A DNA stretch of 64,000 nt from an uncultured Candidatus Rokubacteria bacterium (GTDB lineage: Bacteria; Methylomirabilota; Methylomirabilia; Rokubacteriales; DASRDR01), in the NCBI GenBank assembly GCA_963826115.1, contig CAWGVS010000011.1, positions 160,001 to 224,000 on the forward strand, in the 5' to 3' direction. The stretch's first letter is position 1. Each line of letters starts with the position of its first letter. The position numbers and the translations under genes were made by a program. Under the pieces are notes generated by a model. It was not told the origin of the DNA. It worked only from the letters and a program-made list of their open reading frames with translations, and made no database searches. Shown piece by piece: positions 23,092 to 64,000 of the stretch.

Positions 23092-23110
23092 TGCCGCCTC
23101 CTAGCCCCAA

Positions 23111-41664: not shown

Positions 41665-42776
<1,112 letters not shown>

Positions 42777-46229: not shown

Positions 46230-47135
46230 ATGGAGTCAGCGGACGACGTCCGAGCGAGCCTTGCCGTTGCCCCGCTCGGGGACCTTCGCCCGCACGAGGC
46301 CACCTCCCCGGACGGTGAGTCCCGCGTGGCTGATCTCCTCGGGGCCGCGCGCGTTCTGTCCTGGCCGCTCGTCGTGGATGCCGCGTCCGGGCTGATCCTG
46401 GATGGGAGCCATCGCGCCGTCGTCCTCGCCCGCGACTTCGGCGCGCGCTTCGCCGTGATCCAGCGGGTCGACCTCGACTCGCCGGACGTACGCATCGGAA
46501 CCTGGTGCCGCGTGCTCGAGAGCGTGCCCGCCGCCGCCTTCGACGCCGCCCGCCGCGCGCTCGGGCTCGAGGTCGGCGCGGAGGGAGGCCTCCGATGTCA
46601 CTACGGCGACCGTGTCTACGGCCGGCCCGGGCCCCAGGCGTCGGATCCTCACGCTCTGGCGAGTGAGGTCGAGCGACTCGTCTCACGGAACGGCCGCCGG
46701 CGCCCGCCGCGTCTGGTCGAGGACGAGGTGATCGCCGAGTGGCTGGCTGCGGCCGACGTCGTCGTCTTGCGTCCGCCGGCGCTCGACAAGCCAACCGTGC
46801 GCGAGCGGGCGGCCGGTCCGCTCCTGCCGCCAAAGTCGACCCGCTTCCTCTTGCCGTACCGGGTGCTCGGGCTTGCCGTGCCGCTCGCGGCGCTCGGGGG
46901 ACCGCGAGCGGGGCTCGTGGCCGAGGTCGAGCGCGAGCGGGCGCGGCCGCTTGCGTGCCTGGGGGACGGGCTGGCCGTCGACCGGCACTACCCCGAGCGG
47001 CTCTGGCAGTTCGCCGACCATCGAATTCCCGACAATCTCTTCGCGGACGAGGCGGGACGCCACGCATACGCGGACGCGCTCGCGCGGGCGACGTTCCCGG
47101 ATCCGGCGCGACCCGGCCCACGCCGTCAAGGCTGA
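46230..47135 (+). CDS. ParB/Srx-fold protein, SerK/SbnI-like free L-serine kinase candidate
   Basis: [30 protein letters not shown]...[12 protein letters not shown] in the order and spacing of SerK/SbnI. Confidence 0.7.
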
Positions 47136-47158
47136 ATCCAAGGCAGAAGGAGGCTCCC

Positions 47159-48523
47159 GTGGCCCAGACCAAGTTCGTGCTGGACGAGAAGGACCTGCCG
47201 AGCCGCTGGTACAACATCCAGGCGGACCTGCCGGCGCCGCTCCCGCCGGTGATCCACCCGGGCACGCTCCAGCCCATCGGCCCCCAGGACCTCGCGCCGC
47301 TGTTCCCGATGGAGATCATCAAGCAGGAGGTGAGCCAGGAGCGGTGGATCGACATCCCCGAGCCGGTGCGGGACGTCTACCGGCTCTGGCGGCCGACGCC
47401 CCTCTACCGCGCCCACCGCCTGGAGAAGGCGCTCGGGACGCCCGCGCGCATCTACTACAAGTGGGAGGGCGTGTCGCCCGCCGGGAGCCACAAGCCCAAC
47501 ACCGCGGTCGCCCAGGCCTACTACAACCACCAGGAGGGCGTCCGCCGCATCACGACGGAGACGGGCGCGGGGCAGTGGGGCTCGGCGCTGTCGTTCGCCT
47601 GCCAGATCTTCGGGATCGAGTGCAAGGTCTACATGGTGCGGGTCTCCTACGACCAGAAGCCGTACCGGCGGATCATGATGGAAGCGTGGGGCGGCCAGGT
47701 AGTGGCGAGCCCGTCTCGCGAGACTGCGGCCGGCCGCGCGATTCTTGCGAAGGACCCGCAGTCGCCGGGAAGCCTCGGCATCGCGATCTCGGAAGCGGTC
47801 GAGGAGGCGGCCCAGCGCGAGGACACGAAGTACTCGCTCGGTTCGGTGCTGAACCACGTGCTGACGCACCAGACGGTGATCGGGCTGGAGGCCCAGCGGC
47901 AGCTCGAGATGGCGGGCGACCGTCCGGACATCCTCGTCGGCTGCATCGGGGGCGGCTCGAACTTCGGCGGGTTCACGTTCCCCTTCCTCCAGGACAAGCT
48001 GAACGGGCGGTGGAAGGACCTTCGCGTCATCGCCGTCGAGCCCCAGGCGACTCCGAGCCTCACCAAGGGCGAGTACGTCTACGACTTCGGTGACACCGGA
48101 CAGATGACGCCGCTGATCAAGATGTACACCCTCGGCCACTCCTTCATCCCGGCGCCGATCCATGCGGGGGGCCTCCGCTACCACGGCATGGCTCCTCTGG
48201 TGTGCGCGCTCTACGACCACAAGGTGATCGAGGCGGTGGCCGTCCACCAGAACCCCACCTTCGAGGCGGCGCTGACGTTCGCGCGGGCGGAAGGGTTCCT
48301 GCCGGCGCCCGAGGCGGCTCACGCGATCCGGGTCGTCATCGACGAGGCGCTCCGCTGCAAGGCCTCGGGGGACCGGAAGGTCATCGCCTTCAACTTCTGC
48401 GGCCACGGCCACTTCGACCTCTCCGCCTACGAGCGCTACATGACGGGCAAGCTCGAGGACTTCGAGTACCCCGCGGCGGAGGTGAAGGCGGCGCTGGCGG
48501 GGCTTCCGAAGGTCAAGGTTTAG
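47159..48523 (+). CDS. trpB2: Tryptophan synthase beta chain 2 (TrpB-like PLP enzyme)
   Basis: [23 protein letters not shown] (PLP Lys), [29 protein letters not shown]; RBS AAGGAGG. Confidence 0.95.
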
Positions 48524-48669: not shown

Positions 48670-48675
48670 GCTCAG

Positions 48676-48966
48676 ATGCGAGCCGTTGGACTCAAGACCC
48701 TCAAGAACAAGCTCAGCGAGTACGTCAGGCTCGCGGCCGGCGGGGAGACGATCCTCGTGACGGACCGGGACCGCGTCGTGGCCGAGCTGGTGCCCCCCGG
48801 GGAGGGTCGGAGCGCCCTCCTGGGGGATGCCATGCTGGCCGAGGCCGTGCGTCGCGGCTGGGTCGTCCCCCCGTTGCTGAGCCCCGCTGGGGTGCCGCCG
48901 CGCAAGCCCGTGGCGAAGCTGAACGAGCTACTGGCGGAGCTGGAGCACGATCGAGGGGATCGGTGA
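48676..48966 (+). CDS. Phd/YefM-family antitoxin
   Basis: MRAVGLKTLKNKLSEYVRLAAGGETILVTDRDRVVAELVPP. Confidence 0.9.
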   Translation: MRAVGLKTLKNKLSEYVRLAAGGETILVTDRDRVVAELVPPGEGRSALLGDAMLAEAVRRGWVVPPLLSPAGVPPRKPVAKLNELLAELEHDRGDR

Positions 48967-49396: not shown

Positions 49397-50551
49397 ATGG
49401 ACTTCCGGCTGAGCGCGGAGCAGGAGGAGTTCCGGCGGGCCGTCGCCCGCTTCGTGGACGCGGAGGTGGCGCCGGTCGCCCACGAGATCGACGAGGCGGG
49501 GGCGTTTCCCCGCGCGCTCTTCCGGCGCCTGGGCGAGCAAGGCTACCTCGCCCTTCGTTACCCCGAGGTCTACGGCGGGGCGGACGCGGACTTCGTGACC
49601 TACTGCCTCTTCGCCGAGGAGCTGGCCCGCGGGTCGATGTCGGTTGCCGCGCTCGCCGCGATGCAGAGCCTCATGGGGACGCATTTCATCTGGAAGTACG
49701 GAAGTGACGCGCTTCGCGAACGCTACCTGGTCCCGGCGCTTCGCGGGGAGAAGGTCGCCACGTTCGCTCTGACCGAGCCAAATGCGGGGTCCGACATCGG
49801 CAACCTCGCCACCAGGGCGGAGCGCGTCGAGGGCGGCTGGCGTCTCAAGGGCACCAAGACCTGGGTCACGAACGCGCCGGTCGCCGACATGCTGACGGTC
49901 TGCGCGAAAACGTCCCCCGAGCGCGGGATGAAGCACATCGCGCTGTTCCTGGTCGACCGGCAATTCCCCGGCGTGACGCTCGGCAAGAGGATCGAGAAGC
50001 TCGGCGTGCGGGCGTCGGCGACCGGCGAGATCATCCTCGACGACGTGCTCGTCCCGGACGAGCACCTCCTCGGCGGCGAGACGGGCGGGGTCGAGAAGGT
50101 GGGGGGCATCCTCTCGGAGATCCGCGTGATGACGGGCGCGCTCTCGGTCGGCCTCGGCCGTGCGGCGTACAACGCCGCGCTCCGCTACTCGAAGGAGCGC
50201 GTCACGTTCGGGAAGCCGATCGGCGAGCACCAGGCGGTGACCTTCCGGCTCGTCGACATGCTCACGCAGCTTCACGCGGCGAGCCTGCTCGTGTACCACG
50301 CAGCGTGGTGCATCGACCAGGGACGCCCGGTTACGCGGGAGGCGGCGATGACCAAGCTCTTCGCCTCCGAGGCCGCGAACCGGATCTGCGACGAGGCCTC
50401 GCGGATCTTCGCCTCGTACTCGTTCGCCACCGAGTACCCCATAGAGCGATACTTCCGAGATGCGCGCTTCCTGCTGTGGGGCGGGGGCACGAGCGAGATC
50501 CTGCGAGTCATCATCGGGCGCGACCTCGACCGTCCGTCGAGCCTCGGATGA
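49397..50551 (+). CDS. Acyl-CoA dehydrogenase family protein
   Basis: FALTEPNAGSD, GTKTWVTN, KLGVRAS, FGKPI, RYFRDAR..GGGTSEI. Confidence 0.92.
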   Translation: MDFRLSAEQEEFRRAVARFVDAEVAPVAHEIDEAGAFPRALFRRLGEQGYLALRYPEVYGGADADFVTYCLFAEELARGSMSVAALAAMQSLMGTHFIWKYGSDALRERYLVPALRGEKVATFALTEPNAGSDIGNLATRAERVEGGWRLKGTKTWVTNAPVADMLTVCAKTSPERGMKHIALFLVDRQFPGVTLGKRIEKLGVRASATGEIILDDVLVPDEHLLGGETGGVEKVGGILSEIRVMTGALSVGLGRAAYNAALRYSKERVTFGKPIGEHQAVTFRLVDMLTQLHAASLLVYHAAWCIDQGRPVTREAAMTKLFASEAANRICDEASRIFASYSFATEYPIERYFRDARFLLWGGGTSEILRVIIGRDLDRPSSLG

Positions 50552-50600
50552 CCACCATCGCCTGATCGGCCGCGCGGACACAGCCATGGGGGAGTGGTTC

Positions 50601-51068
50601 AACCGCGACGCGATGAGCCACAAGATGACCGAGGACCAGTGGGACCAGGTGCTCACGGTCAACCTCAGGGGGACCTTCCTCTGCGCCCAGGCCGCGCTGG
50701 TAGGGATGCGGGAGCGCGGCTGGGGGCGTGTGATCAACACGTCGTCGGTCGGGTCGCTCGGGAACATCGGCCAGGCCAACTACTCCGCCTCGAAGGCGGG
50801 CGTCATCGGCCTCACGCGCACGCTGGCGCTCGAGTGTGCGAAGTTCGGGATCACCGTGAACTGCGTCGCCCCGGGGCCGGTCATGACGCGGATGCTGGCG
50901 GGTGTCACCGAGGCGATTCGCGAGAAGATCGTCGCGCGCGTCCCGACCGGGCGGGTCGCCCGGCCCGACGAGATCCCCGGCGTTCACGCCTTTCTCGCCT
51001 CCGAGGACGCGGCATTCATCACGGGCCAGGTGCTCTTCGTCGACGGCGGCATGTCCGTCGGCGTCTGA
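50601..51068 (+). pseudogene. 5'-truncated FabG-like SDR
   Basis: Similarity begins at NRDAMSHKMT; has NYSASK, NCVAPG, ITGQVLFVDGG; no TGxxxGIG region. Confidence 0.75.
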
Positions 51069-51071
51069 CCC

Positions 51072-52346
51072 GTGACGATGCCCGGCGGCTCGACGGAGGA
51101 TCTTCTCCAGGCGGTCCGGACCGGCGACCTCTCGCGGCTGGCGGGACTCCTGGATGCCGATCCCGCTCTCATCCGGGCGCGCGGCCCGGGCGGTGAGACC
51201 CTGGCCCTCCTGGCCTGCTACCGACGACAGCCGGCCACCCTGGGCGTCCTGCGGGCCCGCGGCGCGGTGCTCGACGTGTTCGAGGCCGCCGCCGCCGGCG
51301 ACATCACGCGTCTGGCTCTTCTCCTGGCCGGGGCGCCTGAGCTCGTGTCCGCGTACGCCGGCGACGGCTGGACGCCTCTCCACCTCGCGGCTCACTTCGG
51401 AGAGACGCCGGCCGTCGCGCTGCTGCTCGCGCATGGCGCGGATCCTCGTGCCCGCTCGCGGAACGCGCTCGTCAACACGCCTCTTCACGCGGGGCTGGCG
51501 GGCACGGCGGGGCTCGACCTGGTGAGCCGCCTGCTTTCCGCCGGGGCGGAGGTGAACGCGGCCGATGCGGCCGGCTACACGCCGCTCCACCTCGCGGCGA
51601 GCCGAGGCGAGCTGTCGCTCGTCACCCGTCTCCTTCTCTGCGGGGCCGAGACATCGGCACGGACGGCGGAGGATCGAACCGGCGCCGACCTCGCCCGGGC
51701 GCGAGGGCATGAGGCGACGGCGCGGTTCCTGGAGACCTGGTGGGGGGAGCGCGCCCGGATCGTTGCGCGGCGAGAGCGCCAGCTATCGCCGTGGACCACG
51801 CTGATCGAGAAGGATGTCGAATTCGCGCCGGGTCGGACGCCGGACACCTATCACGCGTTCGGGCCGTTCGACTGGGTCGTCGCCGTCGCCTGGCTGCCGG
51901 ACGGGCGCGTCCCGATCGTCCGACAGTTTCGGCCAGCCGTCGAGCGGTACACCTGGGAGCTGCCATCGGGCCTGGTGGACCCGGGTGAGGATCCGGAGAC
52001 GGCATGCCGGCGGGAGCTCCTGGAGGAGACGGGCCTCCGGTCCGACCGCGTGACCTATCTCGGCGGGTATCGTCCCGACACGGGCCGCCTCGAGCTGGTC
52101 CAGCACGTCTTCCGCATCGAGGCGTCGGGGCCCGCGCCGGAGTTCGTACCGGAGCCCGGGGTTGTCGTCGAGTACGTCCGGCCCGAGACGGTGTCGGAGC
52201 TCATTCGTTCGGAGAGCTTCGTCCAGCTTCATCACATCGCCGCCTGGCTTCTGGCAACCGCTGACCGAGCTTCCCGCGCTGACGGCCTTCCTCTCCCGGG
52301 GCGCCCGCGAGCTGCCACTCGCACCGAGCGCGACGCCGGCGGCTGA
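51072..52346 (+). CDS. Ankyrin-repeat / NUDIX hydrolase fusion
   Basis: GWTPLHLAA, NTPLHAG, GYTPLHLAA, then RQFRPAV..WELPSGLVDPGEDPETACRRELLEETG. Confidence 0.85.
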   Translation: MTMPGGSTEDLLQAVRTGDLSRLAGLLDADPALIRARGPGGETLALLACYRRQPATLGVLRARGAVLDVFEAAAAGDITRLALLLAGAPELVSAYAGDGWTPLHLAAHFGETPAVALLLAHGADPRARSRNALVNTPLHAGLAGTAGLDLVSRLLSAGAEVNAADAAGYTPLHLAASRGELSLVTRLLLCGAETSARTAEDRTGADLARARGHEATARFLETWWGERARIVARRERQLSPWTTLIEKDVEFAPGRTPDTYHAFGPFDWVVAVAWLPDGRVPIVRQFRPAVERYTWELPSGLVDPGEDPETACRRELLEETGLRSDRVTYLGGYRPDTGRLELVQHVFRIEASGPAPEFVPEPGVVVEYVRPETVSELIRSESFVQLHHIAAWLLATADRASRADGLPLPGRPRAATRTERDAGG

Positions 52347-52496
52347 TCGGCGGCCTCAGCCGACGGAGCGGACGGCGGCGAAGGAGAAGGCGAAGAGCAC
52401 GAGCAGACCCAGGGGAACAGTCGCAGAGCCTCACCCAGCATTTCTGGGGTAAGGTGGAGCCGACTGTCGGCCTGTCGGCCGAAGGGAGCTTGGCGG

Positions 52497-53660
52497 ATGC
52501 GGCGAGTGGCCCTGGTCGGAGCGGGCATGACGCGCTTCGGCGTGCGGAAGGCGACGTATCGCGACCTCATCTGGGAGGCCGGCAAGGCGTGCTTCGACTC
52601 GGTGCCGGCCGTGCGGCCGGCTGACCTCGAGGGCATCGTGGTGGGCTCGGTCATGCCGGAGCGCACCGTCTTCCAGAGCCACATCTCCTCCCTCGCCGCC
52701 GAGGCGCTCGGGATCAAGCCGAGCCGGCTCTCTGCCCGGACCGAGCACATGTGCGCCTCGGGCACCGTCGGGCTCCGGTACGCCTATGCCTTCATCGCAG
52801 CCGGCCTCGCGGATCTGGTCATGGTCCTCGGCGTGGAGAAGCTGAACGTGCCCACGCCCGACGAGGCTCTCCTCAACATGGGCGCGGGCGTCGACCGGGA
52901 GTGGGAGGCCGCACACGGGCTCACCGCGCCGCCCTGCTTCGCCCTGGCGGCGCAGGCGCACATGGCGCGCCACGGCACGACCGAGGAGCAGATGGCGCTG
53001 GTCAGCGTGAAGAACCACAACCACGCGAGCCGGAATCCCTACGCGCACTTCCAGAAGGGAGCGACCCTCGACCAGGTGCTCTGCTCCCGCATGATCGCGA
53101 CCCCGTTTCGCCTGTTCATGTGCTCGCCCATCACAGACGGCGCTGCTGCCGTCATCGTCGCCAGCGAGGAGCGGGCCCGCGATCTGACGGACCGGCCCGT
53201 GTGGATCCGAGGCACCGGCCAGGCCCTGGACGGGTTCACCCTGTCCGCGCTTCCCGAGGACTACGCGAGCTGGCCGTCGATGCGGCGGGCGGCGGAAGAG
53301 GCCTACCGGATGGCTGGCGTCGGCCCCGACGACGTGGATCTCGCGGAGGTGCACGACTGCTTTGCCATCGCGGAGATCATCGCCTACGAGGAGCTTGGCT
53401 TCTGCGCGAAGGGGGAGGGCGGCCGCTTCGTCGAGAAGGGCCTGTCCGATTACGGGGGGAAGGTCGTGGTCAACCCGCGCGGCGGGCTGATCGGCTGCGG
53501 CCACCCCCTCGGCGCCACGGGGATCGCCCAGGCTTCCGAGGCCTTCTGGCAGCTTCGTGGCGAGGCCGGTCCGCGCCAGGTGCCGGCGGCGCGGCTTGCC
53601 CTCACCCACAACAACTCAGGGATGGGCGAGCACGTCGTCATGCTCTACGGGCGTGACTGA
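52497..53660 (+). CDS. SCP2/archaeal-type thiolase-family protein
   Basis: GMTRFG, HMCASG, KNH..A..NPYA, CSPITDGAAA, AEVHDCF, GHPLGATG. Confidence 0.92.
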   Translation: MRRVALVGAGMTRFGVRKATYRDLIWEAGKACFDSVPAVRPADLEGIVVGSVMPERTVFQSHISSLAAEALGIKPSRLSARTEHMCASGTVGLRYAYAFIAAGLADLVMVLGVEKLNVPTPDEALLNMGAGVDREWEAAHGLTAPPCFALAAQAHMARHGTTEEQMALVSVKNHNHASRNPYAHFQKGATLDQVLCSRMIATPFRLFMCSPITDGAAAVIVASEERARDLTDRPVWIRGTGQALDGFTLSALPEDYASWPSMRRAAEEAYRMAGVGPDDVDLAEVHDCFAIAEIIAYEELGFCAKGEGGRFVEKGLSDYGGKVVVNPRGGLIGCGHPLGATGIAQASEAFWQLRGEAGPRQVPAARLALTHNNSGMGEHVVMLYGRD

Positions 53661-53727
53661 ATCGAGCCTCTTCGCGGGGACGTGACCGACCGGCAGCGCC
53701 GCCCTGTCGGCGGCGGCGCTGCCCGGA

Positions 53728-55171
53728 TCAGGCTGGCTGGGTTCCGGAAGCTGGCTGGCGCGGCCCCCCGCGCCAGCGCCGCCGCCGGCGCCGGCGGCCA
53801 CGCGCCGGCGGGCCAGCAGCAGGACCGGGAGGGAGCGTGGCCCGGTTACCGTCGATCTCGGGCAGCTCGGGCTCGCTATCCGCCCACCTGAGAAAGTCCG
53901 GCTGACGGTCGTCTTCCACTTCCTCCGTCTCGGCGGCCTCGGCTACGGGCTTCTCCACGATCGGCGCCGCGCTCTGGACTCGGGGCGCGCTCTCCGCCTG
54001 CGGCTCGTTCGCGGGCGGGACGCCGTCCTCGGCGAGGGTGATCGTCCCGGACGGGCTCACGAGGAGCTCCTTGATCCGGCGGAGCCGCGTGACGAGTCGG
54101 GGAGAGCCCGCTGGCCGCTGGAATCCCCGGGACTTCAGCGCGTTGGCCACCGCGTCGATGCTGACGACGCGCTTGGGCGCCGCCTCGACGAGGCCGCGGA
54201 CGACGGACACCAGCTCGTCGTGAGGAGCGGTGGTCTGGGGGGACTCGGGCTGCGGCCGCGGGGCATGCGAGGTGACCGGACGACCTCTGCCGCCGCTTCC
54301 CGTGCGTCCGCCGCGCGACCCGCCGGACGGACCATGCCGAGGGCCTTCGCGCGAATCGACGTGCCGACGCTCGCCGGTCTGCGCCGGCGGCGGACCGCCG
54401 GGCCCACGCCCCCGGCGGCGACGCCGTCGGCGCGAACCTGAAGCGCTCGCGCTCGCCGCGAGGGGCCGGCTCTCCTCCTCGACGAGCACCGTCTCCGGCG
54501 AGTCCTCCTTGAGACGGCGATAGGACAGGCGGCGGAACTCGATCCCCAGGCTGGCGGCGACGTCTCCCACGGCGTCGAAGGCGCGGTCGTCGGACACGAT
54601 CTCGATGATGTCGCCGGGCCGGGCCGACGCCAGCCAGATCCCGGCCGCGACGGCGATGCGCAGGTCGCTCCAGTCGCGGACGCCCGTCGAGGGGGCGCTG
54701 TGCACGAGATGAGCCCCGCGCGCTGCCAGGAGCCGCGCTGCTTCATGACCCACCACGCGCCAGTTCGCGACGGCCACGAGCTCGGTCCGACGATCCCATC
54801 GGATCGACCCCCAGGTGGTCGATGACGTGGGCGAGGTGCTGGGCGCGGCTCGTGTTCTCGACGTCGAGGAAGATCGCGCGCCGGCCGGGGGGCCGCGGAC
54901 GCTCGGGCTCGGGCGGCGGCACGCGAGCGGCGAACGCGCTCTCGATGGTGGAGAGGGGTACCGGGAGGGGCTCGGGCTCGTCGATGACTCGGACGACGAC
55001 CGGAGCCACGGGCTCGGGGGGTGGTGCCTCGACGACCGCGCGACGCGAGCGCTCGGCTGCCTTCGGGCTTCTCCGTCCACTCGACGCCGCGCGGGAAGAG
55101 CTACTCCGCGTCTTCTTTCGGCTCCCGTCTCGGCTCGAGCTGGTCGTCACGGTCGCCTCAGTGTAACGCAT
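53728..55171 (-). CDS. NYN/PIN-like domain protein with low-complexity Arg-rich tails (frameshift near 54800)
   Basis: IFLDVEN, DWSDLRIAV, IVSDDRAFD acidic motifs; C-terminal HTH-like segment (IDAVANALKSRGF). Confidence 0.6.
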
Positions 55172-55282
55172 GACGGTGGGTTCGCGCGCGTCCCGGAGAC
55201 AGGAGGCTGCCGGGGCGCTTCGACCGGCGGACCCTGGCCCCTTCGAGGTCGGTACAGGACCCGGCTGCTATACTCCCGGCTG

Positions 55283-55814
55283 GTGAACACCGACGTGACG
55301 CCTCCGGTTGGGCAGCCTCTCCAGCTCGTGCACCCCGTGCTGCCCCCGGCGGGGTCGACTCTGGGGCGCCGGCCGGCCGAGCTATCCGGACGAGCCGCCT
55401 AGCGCCGACGCGGTGGATGCGGGCGTCCGAGCCTGGCGGGAGCTGGGGGTCGGGCTCGTACTGAGCCTCATCGAGGACTGGGAACTGCCGAGGCGGGCTC
55501 CGGGACTGTTCGAGGCGCTCGCGCGGGAGCGGATCGACCTGTGCCGGCACCCCATCGCGGACTTCGGGGCACCGCGAGACGTGACGGGGTTTCGTCGGTT
55601 GCTCCGTGACGTCGGGGAGCGCCTGGCTGCCGGCGACGGAATCCTGGTCCACTGCAACGCCGGTCTCGGCCGAACGGCCGTCGTCCTCGCATCCATCCTG
55701 AAGTCGCATGGGCTGGCCCTTGACCCGGTGACGGAGCTCCGGCGCATCTACCGGTCGAGTGCCATGCAGGAGCCCGTTCAAGAAGCCTTCGTCCGGGGCC
55801 TCCCCACGGGCTGA
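55283..55814 (+). CDS. Dual-specificity/tyrosine protein phosphatase (frameshift near 55345)
   Basis: HPIADFGAP, VHCNAGLGRT (HCX5R), Q..QE.F; TGcTATACT upstream. Confidence 0.85.
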
Positions 55815-55892
55815 TCTTTCTCGCAGCCGTTCCGCCAGTCGCGCCGGCCCATGTCGGCGAATGATAGACTGCCGGCTGGGAGAGTTGATCCC

Positions 55893-56375
55893 ATGACCGA
55901 GCCCGCCACCGCGCCGGGCACGCCAACCCGGCTTCCGTACGTCCGGGTGGTAGACCCGCTGCCCCTCGAGTCCCCGGAGCACAACAAGCTCCATCCCTTC
56001 TACGCGCATCTCGCGGAAGGCCGCCTGACCACGACCCGGTGCCGGGACTGCCGGCGGATCGACTGGCCGCCGCGGGGCTTTTGCCCCGCGTGCACGTCCG
56101 ACGCGTTCGACTGGGTGGACCTCCCGCCGGACGGCAAGGTGCACGGCTTCAGTGTCCAGGAGACCGGCGTGCCGGCTGGTTTCGCGAGACCGCTGGTGTT
56201 CGCGATGGTCGAGGTGGCGGGGCTCCGCCTATTCGCGCCTCTCGTCGGCGTCGCGGATCCAGCCGCCCTCGCGGTGGGCGCCCACGTCCGGTTCGCACCG
56301 GTCCGGGTGGCCGACGACCCGCAGGGGAAGCCGCGCTACCTGCCGGCCTTCACGCCAGCGGTGACACCACGGTGA
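55893..56375 (+). CDS. Zn-ribbon/OB-fold (DUF35) protein, thiolase partner
   Basis: [16 protein letters not shown]...PPRGFCPAC...WVDL..GKV. Confidence 0.9.
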
Positions 56376-56775
56376 CGGACCGTCCGCTCAGGGTGCTGAT
56401 CGCGAAGCCCGGCCTCGACGGGCACGATCGCGGCGCCAAGGTGGTCGCGCACGCGCTCCGGGACGCCGGAATCGAGGTCGTGTATTCGGGGCTGAAGCGG
56501 ACCCCCGACGAGCTGGTGGCCGAGGCGTCCAGGAAGACGTGGACGTCATCGGCCTGTCGGTGCTCTCGGGGGCGCACCTCACGCTATCGGGGCGCCTCCT
56601 CGAGCGGCTTCGGGCGGCGGATGCCGGCGATGTCGCGGTCGTGGTCGGCGGCACGATCCCCGCCCGCGACGCCGCGGCGCTCCGCGAGATGGGGGTGCAC
56701 GCCGTTTTCCCGATGGGGACGCCGCTGCCCGAGATCGTGTCCTACTTCCGGTCGTTCCGCCGGGCGGACGGGTAG
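56372..56775 (+). CDS. Cobalamin-binding small subunit of acyl-CoA mutase (frameshift near 56528)
   Basis: [17 protein letters not shown] (DxHxxG), [18 protein letters not shown]. Confidence 0.9.
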
Positions 56776-56789
56776 GGAGGGGCGGGTCG

Positions 56790-58416
56790 ATGGCCGAGCC
56801 GCGAGGGGAGAAGAAGCCACGGGATGTGACGTACCTGGACGGGATCGAGGTGAAGCCCGTGTACGGCGCTGCCGACGTGGCGGGGCTCGACTACGGACGC
56901 GACCTCGGCGACCCCGGCGAGTACCCCTTCACCCGCGGGATCCATCCCCTCATGTACCGCTCGCGCGTGTGGACGATGCGGCAGTACATCGGCTTCGGGA
57001 CGCCGGTGGAGACGAACGCCCGCTTCAAGTATCTGATGGCCCACGGGCAGGACGCCCTCAACGTCGCCTTCGACCTGCCGACGCAGCTCGGGCTCGATTC
57101 CGACGACCCGCGCGCCGAGGGCGAGGTGGGGCGGGTGGGGATGGCGGTCGACTCCCTGCTCGACATGGAGGAGGCCTTCGACGGCATCGCCGCCGACCGG
57201 GTCTCCATCTCGTTCACGATCAACTCCATGGCCGCCTTCATCCAGGCGATGTTCCTGGTGGTGGCGGAGAAGCAGGGGGTCGCCTGGGACCGGGTCGTCA
57301 CCACGCCCCAGAACGACATCCTCAAGGAGTTCGTCGCCCGCGGGACGTGGGTGTACCCGGTGGAGTCCCTCGCTCCGCCTGGTCTGCGACATCGCCGAGT
57401 TCTGCGCGCGGCACGCGCCGAAGGTGAACCCCATCTCGGTCTGCGGGTACCACATCCGCGAGGCCGGGTGTACGCCCGCCCAGGAGATGGCCTACGGGCT
57501 CCTCATCGTCGCCGCGTACGCCGACCTCCTGGTGAAGCGCGGCTTGTCGGTCGACGAGTTCGCGCCCCGCCTGTCGTTCAACTTCACGTGCTGGGGGCGG
57601 CTGTTCGAGGAGGTCGCGAAGTTCCGCGCCGGCCGCCGGATGTACGCGCGCATGATGAAGGAGCGCTTCGGCGCGCAGAATCCCCGGTCGATGATGTTCC
57701 GGTCGCTGATCGGCGGGGGAGGGTCCGGCTTCACGGTGCAGGAGCCCGAGAACAACATCGTGCGGGGCGCGTACTACAGCCTCGCGGCCGCGCTCTCGGG
57801 GTGTCAGACGAGCGCCCTTCCGACGTACGACGAGGCATACACGATCCCGTCTCCCAAGGCGCAGCTCATCGCGCTCCGCACGATGCAGATCTGCGCGGAG
57901 GAGACGGGCGTCGCCGACACGGTCGATCCCCTGGCGGGCTCCTACTTCGTCGAGACGCTGACGGACGAGATGGAGGCGCGGATCCGGGCCGAGATGGAGC
58001 GGGTCGAGCGAATGGGCGGGATCATCGAAGGCGTCAAGTCGGGCGCCATCCAGGCGGAGGTCGCCCGCCAGGCCTACCGGTTCGAGCAGATGATGCTCTC
58101 CGGCGAGTACCCGAAGGTCGGGGTGAACCGCCACGTCGCGCCAGACGCCGGGCGCGACGCGTCGGACGCCATCGAGCTCTACGCGTTCGACGCCCGGGTG
58201 GCCGAGGCTCAGGTCGCCCGGCTGCAGCGTTTGCGCCGCGAGCGGGAGCAGGGCGCCGTGGATCGGGCGCTCGCGCGTCTCCGCGACGCCGCGCGCGGCC
58301 ACGACAATCTCATGCCGCCGATCCTCGAGGCGGTGCGGGCCTACGCCACGCTCGGAGAGTTGGCCGGCGCCCTCCGCGACGTGTGGGGCGAGCACAAGGA
58401 ACCGACCGCCTTCTGA
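56790..58416 (+). CDS. B12-dependent acyl-CoA mutase large subunit (frameshift near 57370)
   Basis: [63 protein letters not shown]. Confidence 0.9.
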
Positions 58417-58424
58417 CGAGCGCC

Positions 58425-59153
58425 GTGGGGACCGCAGAGGCCGCCTGGCTCGGCTACAAGGCGCGGAGCTTCGAGCTGCTCGCCCTCGCCGAAGGAGACC
58501 ACATCCTCGACGTCGGGTGCAGCACCGGGGAGGACGTCCGGGTCATTGCGGGCCGGGCGGCGGGCGTGTCCGCGACCGGCATCGACTCGAGCGAGGACAA
58601 GATCCGCGAGGCGCGCGCCCGGACCCTCGGCCTGCCGCGGCCCGTGGACTTCCGTGCGGGCGATGCCTACGCGATCCCCTTCGAGGACGAGACCTTCGAC
58701 GCCTGCCGGGCCGACCGCGTGTTCCACCATCTGCTCGAACCCGCGAAGGCCCTCGCCGAGATGGTGCGGGTGACGAGATCCGGCGGGCGCGTGATGGTGT
58801 GCGATACGGACTACGACAGCCTGTTCGTGGAGGCGGCCGATCTCGACCTCACTCACCGGATACTCGCGCACCACGCGGGCCGGATGGAGTGCGGCCGGGT
58901 GGGGCGGAAGCTCCCGGGGCTATTCCTCGACGCGGGCCTGGGATCGATTGCCGTCACCCCCTACGCGGCGGTCGCGACCGCGTACGACGAGGAGGTGCTG
59001 AAGCTCCGCGACAAGGCAGACCGCGCTGCCGCGAGCGGCGCGATCACGACAGTCGACGCTGCCCGGTGGGTGGAGAGCCTGATCGAGGCTGACGGATCCG
59101 GCCGGTTCGTCTGCGCCCAGATCGTTCTCACCGTGTGCGGGCGCAAGATGTGA
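58425..59153 (+). CDS. Class I SAM-dependent methyltransferase; start uncertain
   Basis: [32 protein letters not shown]. Confidence 0.85.
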
Positions 59154-59929
59154 GCCCCTCGTCCTCCCCGGTCGCTTCGTCGCTTCCCGAGCGGCCGTAC
59201 GCGACGCTCGCGCCCTACTTCGCCCAGCTCTTCGAGCCTCGGGGGATCCGCCGCTGGTTCGCCGCTGCTTCGGGACTGGTCATGGCGGCCGGGCTCCGGA
59301 CCGGGCGCCACCTCGACGTCGGCGCGGGGACTTGCCGGTACAGCCGCTACTGGGCACGGGCCGGGTTCCGGTCGGTGTGCCTGGACATGCTCCACCAGAT
59401 GCTCGTGAGGGCGCGGCTCGTCGGCACGGAGGGCCGCCTCGCCCGGGTGTGTGGAACCCTCGATTGCCTCCGCCCGGCACCGACGTTCGACCTGGTCACG
59501 GCGATCGACGACGTCGTCGCGTACGTCGGCGCGCAGGACGGCGGAGTCGACCGGTTCCTGGAGCAACTCCGTGACCACGTCCGGCCGGGCGGCCTCTTCC
59601 TCTTCGACTTCATCACGCCGGCCGGCCGCCAGCGCTACACGTTCCGCAACTCGCGCGTGCTGGCGGGGGCTCGCGTCGCAGCGGACAGCCGCGGGCAGTT
59701 CGACGAGGCGGCGCGGACCCTGTCGGTCGACCTCACGCTGGAGACGCCCCACCATGTCGCCCGCGAGCGCCACGTGATGCGGCTCCACACCGTGGAGGAG
59801 GTCGAGGGGGCGCTCCGGCGTCACGGCTTCGACGTGGTGGTCGTCACCGATCTCTACGACGGCGCCGGCGTCTCGTTCCGGGCCGATCAGCCCTCCTACG
59901 ACGTGCTCGCGCGCCGGAGACCGGGCTGA
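59150..59929 (+). CDS. Class I SAM-dependent methyltransferase
   Basis: [31 protein letters not shown]. Confidence 0.8.
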
Positions 59930-61123
59930 TGTTGCTCGCCGGCGTCCGCGTGCTCGACCTCTCGCGCATGCTGGCCGGGCCTTATGGCTCGATGCTCCTG
60001 GCCGACCTCGGCGCGGAAGTCATCAAGATCGAAGATCCGCAGGGCGGGGACCCGATGCGCGGGATGGGGCCGCCCTTCCTCGGGCCGGATCGCCAGAGCG
60101 CGTACTTCCTCTCGATCAACCGGAACAAGAAGAGCGTCGCTCTCGATCTCGAGACGCCGGAGGGGCGCGACGTCTTCCACGACCTCTGCCGCGTGTCCGA
60201 CGTCGTGTGGGAGAACTTCCGCCCCGGGGTCATGGCCCGGCTCGGCTGCGCGCCGGAGACGCTGCGCCGGCTCAACCCCCGCCTCGTCGTCTGCTCGATC
60301 TCGGCCTTCGGCCAGGACGGGCCGTACCGCGAGTGGCCCGCCTTCGACCTCGCGCTCCAGGCCATGGGCGGCGCGATGAGCCTCACGGGTGAGGCTGGCC
60401 GGCCGCCGGCGCGGATGGGGCTCCCGATGGGCGACCTGGCGGGCGGGATGTTCGGCGCGCTCGCCGTGGCGAGCGCCCTGTTCCGCCGCGGGCAGACCGG
60501 CGAGGGCGCGCACTTCGACCTCTCGCTCCTCGACTGCCAGGTCTCGCTCCTGACCTACGTCGCCCAGTACTTCTGGGCCGACGGGCGCGTGCCGGGCCGC
60601 GTCGGCTCGGGGCACGCCTCGGTCGTTCCCTATCAGGCGTTCGCCACCCGAGACGGCCACGTGGTGGTCGCGGTCTTCGCCGAGAAGTTCTGGACGGGCT
60701 TCTGTCGCGCCATCGAGCGGCTGGAGCTCGCGGCGGACGCGCGGTTCGACTCGAACCCGAAGCGGGTGGAGCGTCGCGGCGAGCTCCTGCCCATCCTCGA
60801 GGCGGTCTTCCCGACGCGGACCACGGCCGAGTGGCTCGAGCGGCTCCAACGGGAAGGCGTGCCCGTGGCGCCCATCAACACGGTGGACCAGGTCGTCAGC
60901 GACCCGCAGGTGCGTCTCCGCGAGATGGTGGTGGACCTCGAGCACCCGTCGCTCGGGACGCTCAGGACCCTCGGGACGCCGGTGAAGGTGGACGGGGCGC
61001 CGCCGTTCCGCCCCGCCGCCCCGCCGCGCGCTGGGCGAGGACACCGACCCGGTGCTCCGGGAGCTCCTGGGGTATCCGGCCGATCGGATCGGCGGCCTGC
61101 GGCAGCGGCGGATCATCGCCTGA
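59929..61123 (+). CDS. CaiB/BaiF family CoA transferase (C-terminal frameshift near 61030)
   Basis: RVLDLSRMLAGPYG, INRNKKS, ENFRPG, GDLAGG; true C-terminus LGEDT...LRQRRIIA lies in another frame. Confidence 0.9.
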
Positions 61124-61169
61124 GTGGCCCAGTGCTAGACTGGCAGCGACCAGCGGCCGAGGAGGACGC

Positions 61170-62021
61170 CTGAGGCCTTCGTTCGCCTACCATCGCCCCG
61201 CCACACTCGAGGAGGCGTGCCGGCTGCTCGTCGCGGAGCCCCGCGCGGCGATCCTGGCGGGCGGCACCGATCTCATGGTGCACCTGCGGCAGCCGCAACG
61301 GGGGACGCGCCCGCCGGCGGTCATCAACGTCAAGCGCATCCCGGGGCTCGACCGGATCGAGGCCAGCGCGCGCGCGATCCGGCTGGGCTCGCTCACCACG
61401 CTCGCGGCGCTCATCGAACACCCGATCATCCAAGCGGAGTATCCCGTGCTGCCGTTCACGGCGCGCTACATGGGATCGCCCGCGATCCGGCACCTCGCCA
61501 CCGTCGGCGGGAACCTCTGCAACGCCTCTCCCGCCGCTGACCTTTCGCCGGTGCTGCTCGTTCTCGACGCCGAGGTCGGGATCGTCGGCCCGGCCGGGCC
61601 GCGCCGGCTCTCGCTCGAGAGGTTCTTCCGGGGACCCGGACAGACGGCGCTCGCAGAAGCCGAGCTCCTCGCGTGGGTGGAGTTTCCGCGGAAGCACGCG
61701 GGATGGACGGTGCGCTACGAGCGGCTGGACGTCCGCCGCGCGATGGACATCGCGATCGCCGGAGCTGCCCTCGCGCTCCGGCTCGACGGCGGCAGCGTCG
61801 CTGAGGCGCGCCTGGCGCTCGGTGCGGTGGCGCCGACGCCGCGCCGTGTGCCGGCGGCGGAGGCCGCGCTCGTGGAGGGCGGCCTCGAACCGGCCGCCAT
61901 CGAGCGGGTGGCCGAGCTGGCGATGGCCGCGGCGCGGCCGATCGACGACGTCCGCGCGACCGCGGAGTATCGCAGGGAGATGGTCGGCGTCCTCGTCCGG
62001 CGGGCGCTCGCCGGTGGGTGA
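61170..62021 (+). CDS. Xanthine dehydrogenase family FAD-binding subunit (CoxM-like); possible CTG start
   Basis: FAYHRPATLEEA, AGGTDL, ATVGGNLCNASPAAD, PIDDVRATAEYR; GAGGAGG just upstream. Confidence 0.88.
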   Translation: MRPSFAYHRPATLEEACRLLVAEPRAAILAGGTDLMVHLRQPQRGTRPPAVINVKRIPGLDRIEASARAIRLGSLTTLAALIEHPIIQAEYPVLPFTARYMGSPAIRHLATVGGNLCNASPAADLSPVLLVLDAEVGIVGPAGPRRLSLERFFRGPGQTALAEAELLAWVEFPRKHAGWTVRYERLDVRRAMDIAIAGAALALRLDGGSVAEARLALGAVAPTPRRVPAAEAALVEGGLEPAAIERVAELAMAAARPIDDVRATAEYRREMVGVLVRRALAGG

Positions 62022-62028
62022 TCGGGCG

Positions 62029-62550
62029 GTGGCGGATCAGTATCGGCTCGAGCTGACGGTCAATGGGCGCCGGGCGCGCCGCGAGGTTCCGGGCTCCCGG
62101 ACGCTCCTCGAGCTCCTTCGGAATGACTTGCGTCTCACCGGAACGAACCTCGCGTGCGACACGGGCGACTGCGGCGCCTGCACGGTCCTGATCGACGGCC
62201 GCCCCGCCGTCTCATGCCTCGTCCTGGCGCTCGACGTCGACGGCGCCGAGGTGACGACCATCGAGGGGCTGGCCGCGCGCTGGCACGCGTGCTCGGACGC
62301 CCGGCCTCCGACCCTCCACCCGGTCCAGCAGGGATTCTTGGAGGAGGGCGGCGCCCAGTGCGGCTTCTGCACGGCGGGGATGGTCATGGCTGCCGCGGGG
62401 CTCCTCGAGGCGACGCCCGAGCCCAACGAGGCCGAGATCCGCGCCGGCCTCGAGGGGAATCTCTGTCGGTGTACCGGCTACGTCAAGATCATCCGAGCCG
62501 TCCAGGTCGCCGCGGAGCACATGCGCGCGGCGCGGGGGGCCGAGGCGTGA
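62029..62550 (+). CDS. Xanthine dehydrogenase family [2Fe-2S] subunit (CoxS-like)
   Basis: CDTGDCGACTV..SC, QCGFC, NLCRCTGY. Confidence 0.92.
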   Translation: MADQYRLELTVNGRRARREVPGSRTLLELLRNDLRLTGTNLACDTGDCGACTVLIDGRPAVSCLVLALDVDGAEVTTIEGLAARWHACSDARPPTLHPVQQGFLEEGGAQCGFCTAGMVMAAAGLLEATPEPNEAEIRAGLEGNLCRCTGYVKIIRAVQVAAEHMRAARGAEA

Positions 62551-64000
62551 GCGGAGGCCCGGGCCGTTCGGCACGTGGGGCCGCCGGCTCGGCCAGCGCG
62601 CCGGCGGACGCTTCGCCGAGCGCGCGGCCGGCCCGGCCGTTCCGTGTCATCGGCACGCGCGTCGGCAAGCTGGATGCGGCCGAAAAGGTCACGGGCGCGG
62701 TCCAGTACCTCCCCGACCTCGAGATCCCGGGGATGGTCTGGGGCAAGATCCTGCGGACGCGCGTGCCGCACGCCCGCATCACGCGGATCGACACGGCCCG
62801 GGCCGAAGCGCTGCCTGGCGTCCTGGGCGTGGTCACGGGCCGGAATGTCGAGCAGCACCCCTTCGGGTTCGCGAAGGACCACCTGGCCCTGAAGGGAGAC
62901 GTGGTCCGCTGCATCCGCGACGAGGTGGCGGCGGTGGCGGCGGAGACCGAGGAGGTCGCGGCGGAGGCGTGCCGGCTGATCGACGTGGAATACGAGGAGC
63001 TGCCGGCGGTCTTCGACCCGGAGGCGGCGCTCCGCCCGGCGGCGCCGCGAATTCACGCGAAGTTCCCGGGTAACCTGGTCAACTTCGCGTACAAGTTCAC
63101 GGCCGGCGATGTCGACCGCGCCTTCCGTGAGGCGGCGATCGTGGTCGAGGGGACGTACCGGCTCAACTACGTCACCACCGCCTGCATCGGGACGATGGCG
63201 GCGATCGCCCAGTGGGACCCGCGCGGAAACCTCACGATGTGGTCGACGACCCAGATCCCGTTCCTCTTCCAGAAGGACCTCGCGGAGGCGCTCGGGATTT
63301 CCGGAGACCGCATCCGGGTCATCCAGCCGCCGGTCGGCGGGAACTTCGGCCGGGGTCTCGATCTCTACCCGATCGACATCATCGCGGCGCTCCTGGCCCG
63401 GCACGTCAGCCGGCCGGTGAAGATCGTGTTCGACCGGGAGGAGGAGTTCGTCGCGAGTCCGACCCGCGAGCCGTGCGTCTTCACGCTGCGCACGGCGGCG
63501 CGCGCGGACGGGACCCTCATCGGACGCGACGCGCGGGTCCTGATCGACAACGGCGCCTACGTGTCCTGGGGGTCGACGACCCCGTACGTCATGATGACGA
63601 CGCTCGCCGGCTTCTACCGCTGCCCGAACGTCCGTTTCGACACGGCGATCGTCTACACGAACAACGTCTACTCGGGCTCGATGCGGGGCTACGGCAACCT
63701 CGAATCGACCTTCGCCGTCGAGGCGCAGATGGACGACCTCGCCGAGCGGCTCGGCCTGGATCGCCTCGAGATCCGGCGCCGGAACGCGAACCGTCCCGGG
63801 GACGTGACGCCGCAAGGGCTCCGGATCACGAGCTGCGCGCTCGCGGAGTGCTTCGACGCGGTCGCACGCGACATCGCGCGGCCCGTCGACCGGCCGCTTC
63901 GGCCCGGCTGGACGCGGGGGATCGGCTACGCCGGCATGTTCCACGTCGGAGGCGGCGCGCGCGTGTACCGCTCCGACGGCTGCGGGGCGATCGTCAAGCT
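62547..64000 (+). CDS. Xanthine dehydrogenase family molybdopterin-binding subunit, runs off window end
   Basis: Translated from GTG 62547 (absent from the ORF track): DAAEKVTG, PHARI, STTQIPF, VGGNFG, DNGAY, SMRGYG. Confidence 0.92.
   Translation, partial: MSGGPGRSARGAAGSASAPADASPSARPARPFRVIGTRVGKLDAAEKVTGAVQYLPDLEIPGMVWGKILRTRVPHARITRIDTARAEALPGVLGVVTGRNVEQHPFGFAKDHLALKGDVVRCIRDEVAAVAAETEEVAAEACRLIDVEYEELPAVFDPEAALRPAAPRIHAKFPGNLVNFAYKFTAGDVDRAFREAAIVVEGTYRLNYVTTACIGTMAAIAQWDPRGNLTMWSTTQIPFLFQKDLAEALGISGDRIRVIQPPVGGNFGRGLDLYPIDIIAALLARHVSRPVKIVFDREEEFVASPTREPCVFTLRTAARADGTLIGRDARVLIDNGAYVSWGSTTPYVMMTTLAGFYRCPNVRFDTAIVYTNNVYSGSMRGYGNLESTFAVEAQMDDLAERLGLDRLEIRRRNANRPGDVTPQGLRITSCALAECFDAVARDIARPVDRPLRPGWTRGIGYAGMFHVGGGARVYRSDGCGAIVK

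Follow-up and report, generated by a model that had tools for sequence, protein, structure and literature searches.

Which acyl-CoA is rearranged by a B12-dependent mutase that has retained its catalytic residues and exchanged the residues around them? This question is raised by a locus of an uncultured Candidatus Rokubacteria bacterium (assembly GCA_963826115.1, contig CAWGVS010000011.1, positions 160,001 to 224,000), a stretch of 64,000 nt with ~72% G+C which is referred to here as the window. Many spurious open frames were set aside, and gene families were assigned by Pfam and partly by NCBIfam profile matches. Positions 56372-58416 encode a split-subunit B12 acyl-CoA mutase. According to the Pfam matches, the genes from the mutase to a molybdenum (Mo) hydroxylase are all located on the plus strand in one run. 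The best explanation, which we regard as probable, is an adenosylcobalamin-dependent mutase of the IaaGH type, predicted to interconvert an aryl-bearing succinyl-CoA and an arylmethyl-malonyl-CoA, in a Rokubacterial variant. The mutase is a variant of an already proposed kind, not a separate category.

IaaGH belongs to the anaerobic indoleacetate (iaa) pathway. The parts of PMC8360864 which deal with this pathway name IaaB as the ligase, IaaL as phenylsuccinyl-CoA transferase, IaaGH as phenylsuccinyl-CoA/benzylmalonyl-CoA mutase and IaaF as decarboxylating benzylmalonyl-CoA dehydrogenase. The same parts state that IaaF-subclass enzymes all carry GGG instead of the motif YEG and are all encoded in iaa operons, and that IaaF also weakly accepts medium-chain alkylmalonyl-CoA. 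IaaCE is presented in the corresponding part of PMC8453981 as a hydantoinase-like hydrolase. In our literature search, outside of which lay the founding iaa papers and the figures, the mutase names were found in one paper, PMC8360864, which contains no mutase assay, and no published description of the second-shell signature reported below was found.

Active site of the mutase

The B12-binding small subunit (IaaH-like; 56372..56772, plus strand) matches PF02310 at profile positions 2-47 and 49-114 in different frames and carries the DxHxxG motif as DGHDRG. The large catalytic subunit (IaaG-like; 56790..58416, plus strand) matches PF01642 at positions 4-178 and 178-512 of 512, likewise in two frames. 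The two halves of the large subunit were aligned to solved chains. Residue numbering is that of P. shermanii and was fixed by Tyr89 and Arg207, both of which take their expected places when aligned with chains 1REQ and 1E1C.

In methylmalonyl-CoA mutase (MCM), Tyr89, Tyr243 and His244 are catalytic residues. The window mutase retains Tyr89 (in RQY), Gln197, Arg207 (in KEFVARG) and Tyr243 together with His244 (in CGYH). Replaced are His328 by Leu, Ser329 by Ile and Gln330, Thr331 and Ser332 each by Gly (RSLIGGGG), as well as His364 by Ala, Thr365 by Leu and Asn366 by Pro (QTSALP). A first-pass annotation of the locus had noted the loss of RxHxQTxG, the changes of QSLHTN to QTSALPT, SGYH to CGYH and TIQND to TPQND and the retention of RQY and KEFVARG, and the alignments agree with it. 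One correction is required: the histidine that is lost is His328, and the catalytic His244 and Tyr243 are retained in CGYH.

The same positions were tabulated for 47 clade sequences, comprising 27 Rokubacterial loci, a second copy on contig C5 of the same assembly and 19 loci from other phyla. Left out of this table were the partial loci L041, L046, L054, L055, L076 and L078, as well as L077 (42% identical, with an internal stop). Y89, Q197, R207, Y243, H244 and Q361 are invariant in 47/47 rows, as are the replacements Q330G, T331G, S332G, H364A and T365L. Position 328 is L, I or M, position 329 is I or A and position 363 is S or M. Residue 366 is Pro in all 28 Rokubacterial rows and Cys in all 19 others. 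Chance, and likewise compensating indels, a possibility raised beforehand, are excluded as the source of the altered motifs, since the motifs are invariant or nearly so in every one of these sequences. As judged from the aligned residues, the catalytic core and the carboxylate clamp are kept and the second shell is replaced in the whole of a large clade that spans several phyla. With Gly, Ala and Pro in these places, the pocket may be enlarged and able to take up a bulky group.

Three other mutases of the same genome (G000:C6:342668-344209, C12:854571-856097 and C5:1828795-1830342; L001-L003) retain His328, Gln330, Thr331, His364, Thr365 and Asn366. Residues 89 and 207 are Phe and Gln in one of the three, Tyr and Arg in another, whose frame stays open for 1119 residues, and Ile and Gln, as in HcmA, in the remaining one. 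The intact paralogue of the window mutase reaches 601 bits against the general N-terminal mutase model TIGR00641 (cut-off 304) and remains under every equivalog cut-off, with 489 against 876 bits for NF006944 (MCM) and 243 against 1500 bits for NF045497 (IcmF).

In comparison with MCM (PDB 1REQ, 2XIJ, 6OXC), handling of the free carboxylate and of the thioester should be similar, since Tyr89, Gln197, Arg207, Tyr243 and His244 are kept. In contrast to MCM, the window type has other residues in place of His328, Gln330, Thr331, His364 and Asn366, its B12 domain is unfused, no MeaB or epimerase gene is adjacent and its score falls under the equivalog cut-off. The absence of an adjacent meaB or epimerase gene had been noted before and is borne out: the only MeaB match of the genome is on contig C5, and the nearest glyoxalase-family gene is at 22597-23100. 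In loci L043 (13695-14141), L052 (6099-6512), L072 and L079 a glyoxalase-family (epimerase-like) gene stands near the mutase; in the window it does not. Isobutyryl-CoA mutase and IcmF have Phe and Gln as their signature at residues 89 and 207, whereas the window mutase has Tyr and Arg. The closest solved structure by sequence is HcmAB (PDB 4R3U, E 2.7e-144), which has split subunits of similar length. HcmA, however, has Ile and Gln at residues 89 and 207 (RQIAG, MAQKE) and keeps RFHCQT and QSLHTN, the reverse of the window mutase (RQYIG, VARGT). Ethylmalonyl-CoA mutase and the alkylsuccinyl-CoA mutases proposed for anaerobic alkane degradation act on a migrating carbon that bears a substituent larger than hydrogen, as stated in the part of PMC8360864 concerned with them. 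They are set apart by context, as crotonyl-CoA carboxylase and alkylsuccinate synthase, which mark their surroundings, are not found in the window.

Distribution and phylogeny

Of 40 relatives belonging to the same order, 32 have orthologues of at least 70% identity; all counts over these relatives include genome G038, the kin are non-independent and several genomes are incomplete. More distant members, 55-64% identical, occur in metagenome-assembled genomes (MAGs) labelled Aminicenantes, Anaerolineales, Planctomycetota, Polyangiaceae, Gemmatimonadota, Pseudomonadota, Deltaproteobacteria and Eubacteriales. The second-shell replacements are common to Rokubacteria and at least seven other phyla.

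A quick maximum likelihood tree was built from 39 rows (35 of 53 loci and the four mutases of the genome itself) and rooted at its midpoint. The mutase clade of 36 rows has an SH-aLRT support of 100. It divides into two sister groups, one of 17 Rokubacterial rows (SH-aLRT 99) and one of 19 rows from other phyla (96). The Rokubacterial subclade differs from the multi-phylum clade at residues 329, 334 and 366, where it has Ile329, Ser334 and Pro366. According to the first-pass annotation, its reading would have to be given up if the protein fell within a characterised mutase clade sharing the substitutions. The protein does fall in a large clade with these substitutions, which in part goes against that reading; the clade itself is assigned from gene context.

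Among the best 120 of 8000 scored homologues of a mutase from a Pseudomonadota MAG there was no named iaa sequence, and the same holds for the Rokubacterial query. Matches in the ESM Atlas belong to generic 'methylmalonyl-CoA mutase family' clusters. When the published iaaF forward primer (22 gene-specific bases) was matched to metagenome contigs, 32 loci were obtained, none of them with the reverse primer or with GGG. These loci were rejected as iaaF; they are ordinary acyl-CoA dehydrogenases sharing the N-terminus MDFDLTD.

A conserved cluster with a GGG-type dehydrogenase

The proteins of the window and of a Polyangiaceae locus (L065) were compared with all loci, and L065 was scanned against Pfam and NCBIfam. 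In the multi-phylum order, a fusion of an indolepyruvate-oxidoreductase-like (IOR-like) enzyme with an NAD(P)-binding domain comes first, together with the gamma subunit of the enzyme, and next are caprolactamase-like HydA and HydB. They are followed by an acyl-CoA dehydrogenase (ACAD), the small and large mutase subunits and a family III CoA-transferase, and then by the FAD, 2Fe-2S (FeS) and Mo subunits of the hydroxylase, a thiolase and a TrpB-like enzyme. The order from the ACAD over the small and large subunits and the CoA-transferase to the FAD, FeS and Mo subunits is common to Polyangiaceae, Planctomycetota, Pseudomonadota and other loci. The conservation of the operon, which the first-pass annotation had left to be checked, was thereby established for the core cluster, found in the same order across phyla. 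Among the 21 non-Rokubacterial loci, HydA or HydB was found in 15, the dehydrogenase in 12 and the Mo subunit in 10; many loci are short contigs, in which the absence of a gene says little.

The ACAD of the window (49397..50551, plus strand) has all three ACAD domains and is of the IaaF type, predicted to be a decarboxylating arylmethylmalonyl-CoA dehydrogenase. In its C-terminus, LLWGGGTSEIL, GGG replaces the catalytic motif YEG. GGG is present in 22 of 22 readable ACADs that adjoin clade members, the 23rd (L077) being unreadable in frame. As a control, the other ACAD of the window (32623-33843, minus strand) has AGG, not GGG, where YEG is usual. AGG is the motif listed for the sulfinopropionyl-CoA desulfinase subclass in the relevant part of PMC8360864. 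Among the 40 relatives, 32 have the mutase, 30 the ACAD and 29 both; the mutase occurs alone in three and the ACAD alone in one, and seven have neither.

A TrpB-like pyridoxal phosphate (PLP) enzyme is a conserved companion of the cluster. In the window it is encoded at 46667..48523 (plus strand; PALP domain at residues 240-579), with a true start that is probably later than 46667. The gene is 63% identical to the TrpB-like gene that ends the Polyangiaceae cluster, which in turn reaches 734 bits with the NCBIfam model NF009057 (cut-off 366). The Mo subunit of the window looks orthologous to the multi-phylum Mo subunit, because this subunit and its C5 copy are the best matches in the genome (45% and 44% identity), the next being at 36%.

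The fusion of the IOR-like enzyme with a GltD-like NAD(P)-binding part opens the cluster at 9-6518 of L065, and alike in L064, L067, L070, L073, L075 and L076. No CoA ligase was seen in the clusters of other phyla. As the fusion starts the cluster, the TrpB-like enzyme ends it and no ligase was seen, the arrangement hints that in these phyla indoleacetyl-CoA is made from indolepyruvate (from tryptophan or indole) and not from free indoleacetate.

Relation to the indoleacetate pathway

With IaaGH of Aromatoleum aromaticum, as described in part of PMC8360864, the window system shares split large and small B12 mutase subunits and a co-encoded ACAD with GGG, not YEG; a family III CoA-transferase that may be a counterpart of IaaL is encoded as well. 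Many clade members also stand beside a hydantoinase-like lactamase. Moreover, the window mutase keeps the carboxylate-binding residues, as a substituted succinyl- or malonyl-CoA requires. Of the enzymes encoded together with IaaGH, the IaaF-subclass dehydrogenase with GGG is present in the window, whereas the lactamase IaaCE is missing there and present in 15 of the 21 non-Rokubacterial loci. The comparison with IaaGH is one of gene context, and on this basis the following differences are evident: the window belongs to the Rokubacterial sister subclade, its genome has no detectable iaa-type lactamase and its CoA-transferase is of another lineage than that of the Polyangiaceae-type cluster. In addition, it has a DUF35 protein and an SCP-x type thiolase instead of an ordinary thiolase, and two methyltransferases after the mutase.

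The first-pass annotation had proposed a mutase for a bulkier dicarboxyl-CoA in an uncharacterised pathway with ring hydroxylation, CoA activation, carbon-skeleton rearrangement and thiolysis. Its biochemical outline comes close to what the evidence favours. In outline, however, the pathway is not uncharacterised, as the gene set matches the iaa pathway. Nicotinate-type (2-methyleneglutarate mutase), ethylmalonyl-CoA and oxidative pyrimidine pathways were considered as well and were dropped after the GGG dehydrogenase and the lactamase-containing clusters emerged.

The Rokubacterial variant

A DUF35 gene stands upstream of the mutase in 29 loci of the Rokubacterial clade and in 0/21 loci from other phyla. 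The SCP-x type thiolase is confined to Rokubacterial-clade loci and found in fewer of them than DUF35. It is a probable partner of the DUF35 protein; in the Rokubacterial locus L043, the thiolase is directly upstream of DUF35. Methyltransferase 1 is restricted to 13 loci of the subclade to which the window belongs. Methyltransferase 2 occurs in same-genus loci and in L037-L041; neither more distant Rokubacteria nor other phyla have it. Of the genes that had been taken as members of one operon, DUF35 and the two methyltransferases are Rokubacteria-specific additions and do not belong to the conserved core. The CoA-transferase of the window is 56-64% identical to mutase-adjoining ones in Anaerolineales and in one Planctomycetota locus, and the Polyangiaceae-type CoA-transferase has no clear orthologue in the genome.

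HydA and HydB adjoin the mutase in the Rokubacterial loci L042, L043 and L051. The run in L043 consists of a solute-binding protein, the thiolase, DUF35, the small and large mutase subunits, the CoA-transferase, the Mo subunit, a glyoxalase, HydA and HydB. Because some Rokubacteria such as L043 keep the lactamase, the Rokubacterial subclade probably began with the full set, and the lineage of the window lost or replaced the ring-opening step. That the lactamase was not found and methyltransferases were added points to a modified route or to another substrate in the genus of the window; that the TrpB-like and Mo enzymes were kept favours an indole-type compound.

Frameshifts and a second copy of the cluster

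Three genes of the window cluster are interrupted by frameshifts. The small subunit lacks one base at 56526, the large subunit has an extra T, outside a homopolymer, at 57366, and the CoA-transferase has one extra base near 61018. The first-pass annotation had recognised the frameshift near 57370 and overlooked the other two. In a four-way alignment each of the indels is private to the window, the C5 copy and the relatives G014 and G003 being intact.

The best share of the words of the stretch in any public run was 0.19. Contigs of four soil runs were aligned to the stretch at a likeness of at least 88%, which gave evidence at two of the three sites and none listed at ~61018. At 56526, soil contigs have the extra G at depths of 22.9/22.9, 12.7/12.7 and 15.2/19.8; one of them is a piece of 194 bases with only 4 other differences (~98% alike). 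At 57366, the extra base is missing from soil contigs at depths of 17.1/17.1, 17.7/20.4 and 2/5.6.

Isolated indels and frame switches recur all along the window, roughly every 4-5 kb. Compared with G014, the window has 21 isolated single-base indels in 47,657 aligned bases. At about a dozen places one open frame of G014 corresponds to two frames of the window, and in the reverse comparison at nine, so that both assemblies are affected. Places with isolated indels relative to G014 include 1624-2268, 19308-19939, 42124-42683 and 54800; fragments of a periplasmic binding protein (1687-2337) and a short-chain dehydrogenase (SDR; 50460-51068) are split. The dN/dS ratio of the large subunit of the window against four intact orthologues is 0.03-0.135 and behind the shift 0.054-0.135, compared with 0.044-0.121 among intact pairs. 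When read in their correct frames, the shifted genes contain neither stop codons nor larger deletions. As the three frameshifts are private to the window and, at two of the sites, absent from nearly all soil contigs, as indels occur window-wide and as dN/dS resembles that of intact pairs, the frameshifts are most probably assembly errors, a real inactivation of the window copy in the very recent past being much less likely.

The cluster from the dehydrogenase to the Mo subunit is present twice in the assembly, at 49397-64000 of the window and at ~1931519-1950273 of G000:C5. The two copies have ~83% DNA identity and 93-95% protein identity, and the C5 copy is intact. Two copies are also found in the relative G008 and in the MAG of L032/L033. 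The double cluster may be a real duplication in the genus or may come from two strains in one bin (contamination 5.3%).

Genes of the cluster and their surroundings

The genes from DUF35 to the CoA-transferase abut or overlap, and the Mo hydroxylase trio follows after a short gap; starts and stops agree with the earlier description. The run is opened by a dual-specificity phosphatase-like protein (55308..55814, plus strand; Pfam DSP-PTPase families, motif HCNAGLGRT). The DUF35/ChsH2-type protein with zinc ribbon and OB-fold (55851..56375, plus strand; Pfam zf-ChsH2 and OB_ChsH2_C) has a stop codon that overlaps the GTG start of the mutase small subunit. Two class I S-adenosylmethionine-dependent methyltransferases, both on the plus strand, follow the mutase. 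Methyltransferase 1 starts at 58383 or 58425 (GTG start) and ends at 59153 (Pfam Methyltransf_11/25/31); no NCBIfam model matched it at its cut-off. Methyltransferase 2 (59135..59929; Pfam Methyltransf_12/11/25) had no NCBIfam match at E 1e-5. The family III CoA-transferase (59929..61123, plus strand) scores 442 bits against PF02515, and its C-terminal part (...LGEDTDPVLRELLGYPADRIGGLRQRRIIA) lies in another frame. Its best NCBIfam likenesses are succinate-glutarate and succinyl-CoA:mesaconate CoA-transferases, both under the cut-off.

The FAD-binding subunit of the Mo hydroxylase (61170..62021, plus strand; Pfam FAD_binding_5, CO_deh_flav_C) has no in-frame ATG, GTG or TTG between 61113 and 61200. 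A CTG, located four bases behind GGAGGA, is kept in the window, G014 and G003. This conserved CTG and the lack of a usual start in frame suggest that the subunit begins with CTG. The 2Fe-2S subunit (62026..62550, plus strand; Pfam Fer2_2, Fer2) is followed by the molybdopterin large subunit of the xanthine-oxidase family (62547..64000, plus strand; Pfam Ald_Xan_dh_C, MoCoBD_1), which runs past the window and ends ~900 bases on. The best NCBIfam likeness of its intact paralogue is the alpha subunit of 4-hydroxybenzoyl-CoA reductase, with 636 bits against a cut-off of 995. Transporters are found downstream of the Mo gene and an enoyl-CoA hydratase ~12 kb further on.

Upstream of the phosphatase, a minus-strand gene at 53728-55200 splits the cluster into two plus-strand runs. 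The intact G014 version encodes 482 amino acids and has, by eye, the look of a NYN/LabA-type domain with long Arg/Pro-rich tails. The window copy has no Pfam match and a frame switch near 54800. It was tried as the missing hydrolase and rejected, given the NYN/LabA-type look of the intact version. On its other side is the SCP-x type thiolase (52497..53660, plus strand; Pfam Thiolase_C_1 and Thiolase_N), which scores 414 bits against the thiolase-domain subfamily NF004720 of NCBIfam (cut-off 420). It also resembles BbsB, with 221 bits far under the cut-off of 750. Further upstream, all on the plus strand, are a protein with ankyrin repeats and a NUDIX domain (51072..52346; Pfam), conserved in same-genus loci only, and the SDR (50460..51068), which matches Pfam adh_short_C2 at profile positions 87-236 only. 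Only its C-terminal part is in frame; the N-terminal part presumably sits in another frame. The SDR is a candidate 3-hydroxyacyl-CoA dehydrogenase. A Phd/YefM antitoxin-like gene (48652-48966, plus strand) lies between the TrpB-like gene and the GGG dehydrogenase. Elsewhere in the window, ~1 kb at 9912-10942, inside a minus-strand AMP-binding (acyl-CoA ligase-like) gene, is absent from the aligned G014.

Proposed function and alternative explanations

We propose the following scheme for the window cluster. In the mutase, the glycines would open space for an aromatic ring beside the migrating carbon. The CoA-transferase would supply or re-sort the thioester, and the mutase would then yield the malonyl form. 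The GGG dehydrogenase would oxidise and decarboxylate the malonyl form to an enoyl-CoA, from which a hydratase, the SDR and the thiolase with DUF35 could complete a round of beta-oxidation to an aroyl-CoA and acetyl-CoA. The counterpart in the iaa pathway would be the reaction from (2-aminophenyl)succinyl-CoA to (2-aminobenzyl)malonyl-CoA. For the enzyme type, an IaaGH-type mutase, we consider the case to be reasonably good. Indoleacetate as the actual substrate of the window cluster is a tentative assignment, with chances that fall below even.

Several points weigh against this explanation as a whole. The iaa-type lactamase is absent from the 64-kb window. For its beta subunit, the best of six matches in the genome is 35% identical, compared with 56-89% in true members, and with this query an orthologue was found in only 3/40 relatives and in 0/20 of the same family. 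No CoA ligase, IOR-like gene or enoyl-CoA hydratase adjoins the window cluster. The CoA-transferase, two genes downstream of the mutase, shares only ~32% identity with that of the Polyangiaceae-type cluster, whose best match in the genome is a different protein. Membership of the IaaGH type is drawn from gene context and the IaaF motif and not from a direct comparison with IaaG and IaaH of Aromatoleum. The roles assigned to residues 328, 330 and 366 are carried over from structural work on MCM, and the iaa operon is reported to include a Mo hydroxylase. With regard to the reading of the frameshifts as errors, three in 5.3 kb are somewhat above the background of the window, and the soil contigs belong to related organisms and not to the strain itself.

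An alternative retains the enzyme type, a mutase that acts on a bulky 2-substituted succinyl-CoA and feeds a decarboxylating GGG-type dehydrogenase, and dispenses with indoleacetate and lactam opening. Possible substrates would then be other aryl- or alkyl-succinates, methylated derivatives or heteroaryl-acetates with a different ring opening. The mutase of the Rokubacterial subclade (Pro366, Ile329, Ser334) would have a new specificity within a lactamase-free catabolic route kept in most Rokubacteria, in which the Mo hydroxylase, a dicarboxylate CoA-transferase, the mutase, the decarboxylating GGG dehydrogenase and the DUF35-thiolase pair break down some acid with an aryl or heteroaryl substituent, but not indoleacetate. 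We judge this possible but rather unlikely, both for the alternative in general and for the route in this particular form. It is in line with the lactamase not being found in 37/40 relatives though the mutase is present in 32/40, and with a subclade that is sister to, not nested in, the multi-phylum clade and differs from it at residues 329, 334 and 366. Lineage-specific DUF35, SCP-x thiolase, two methyltransferases, phosphatase and Ank-NUDIX protein, and a CoA-transferase from a different lineage, argue in the same direction, as does the weak activity of IaaF with medium-chain alkylmalonyl-CoA mentioned in part of PMC8360864. Yet HydA and HydB adjoin the mutase in three loci of the same subclade (L042, L043, L051), the TrpB-like enzyme and the Mo hydroxylase are retained as in the multi-phylum cluster, and the six more distant hydantoinase-B paralogues of the genome could substitute for the lactamase.

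Explanations that deny the window mutase this activity are less probable still. A decaying pseudogene cluster, with real frameshifts and the intact C5 copy as the functional one, would account for three frameshifts in three genes within 5.3 kb that are all private to the window copy, for an extra T outside a homopolymer at 57366 and for the presence of a second intact copy at ~83% DNA identity. We nevertheless consider it improbable: the dN/dS ratio, also downstream of the shift, matches that of intact pairs, single-base indels and frame switches occur in all parts of the window, the indel is missing from nearly all related soil contigs that cover two of the three sites, and the correct frames are free of stop codons and larger deletions. 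An ordinary methylmalonyl-, ethylmalonyl-, isobutyryl- or 2-hydroxyisobutyryl-CoA mutase with harmless substitutions is suggested by the strong similarity to HcmA (4R3U) and to MCM chains and by Tyr89 and Arg207, retained as in MCM. It is very improbable, given scores below the MCM and IcmF equivalog cut-offs and HcmA having Ile and Gln in place of Tyr89 and Arg207; moreover, six second-shell residues that are kept by the other mutases of the genome and by the solved chains are replaced in 47/47 clade members. The genome already has three mutases with the usual motifs, and the conserved neighbours are unlike those of propionate, ethylmalonyl-CoA or hydroxyisobutyrate pathways. A non-catalytic, MutA-like scaffold subunit with a lost active site deserves mention, since the loss of residues near the active site resembles that in the degenerate beta subunit of P. 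shermanii MCM. Such a scaffold is hardly to be expected, as no variation is seen at the catalytic residues Tyr89, Tyr243 and His244 or at Arg207, which binds the carboxylate, the large subunit is paired with its own B12-binding subunit carrying DxHxxG, purifying selection is strong, the replacements are invariant across phyla and the MutA model is matched weakly (145 bits, cut-off 617).

Implications

So far as the literature was searched, the IaaGH-type mutase has been named but neither assayed nor described at the sequence level. The signature reported here, with core and clamp kept and His328, Gln330, Thr331, His364 and Asn366 replaced, can serve to separate IaaGH-type enzymes from the many genes annotated as 'methylmalonyl-CoA mutase'. 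Going by its residues, the predicted glycine-lined site is an attractive base for the engineering of mutases that would accept aromatic substituents. If the lactamase-free Rokubacterial route is of new specificity, the two methyltransferases of this genus would bring in a methylation, a step not known from any pathway with an acyl-CoA mutase.

The clade and its cluster are far wider than the few anaerobes of the proposed pathway, occurring in MAGs of Rokubacteria, Planctomycetota, Myxococcota, Chloroflexota, Gemmatimonadota, Aminicenantes and Bacillota. This bears on the question which organisms remove auxin and related indoles in soils and sediments. The Rokubacterial form, in which the lactamase is gone and genes have been gained, is a natural test of how such a pathway is rewired.

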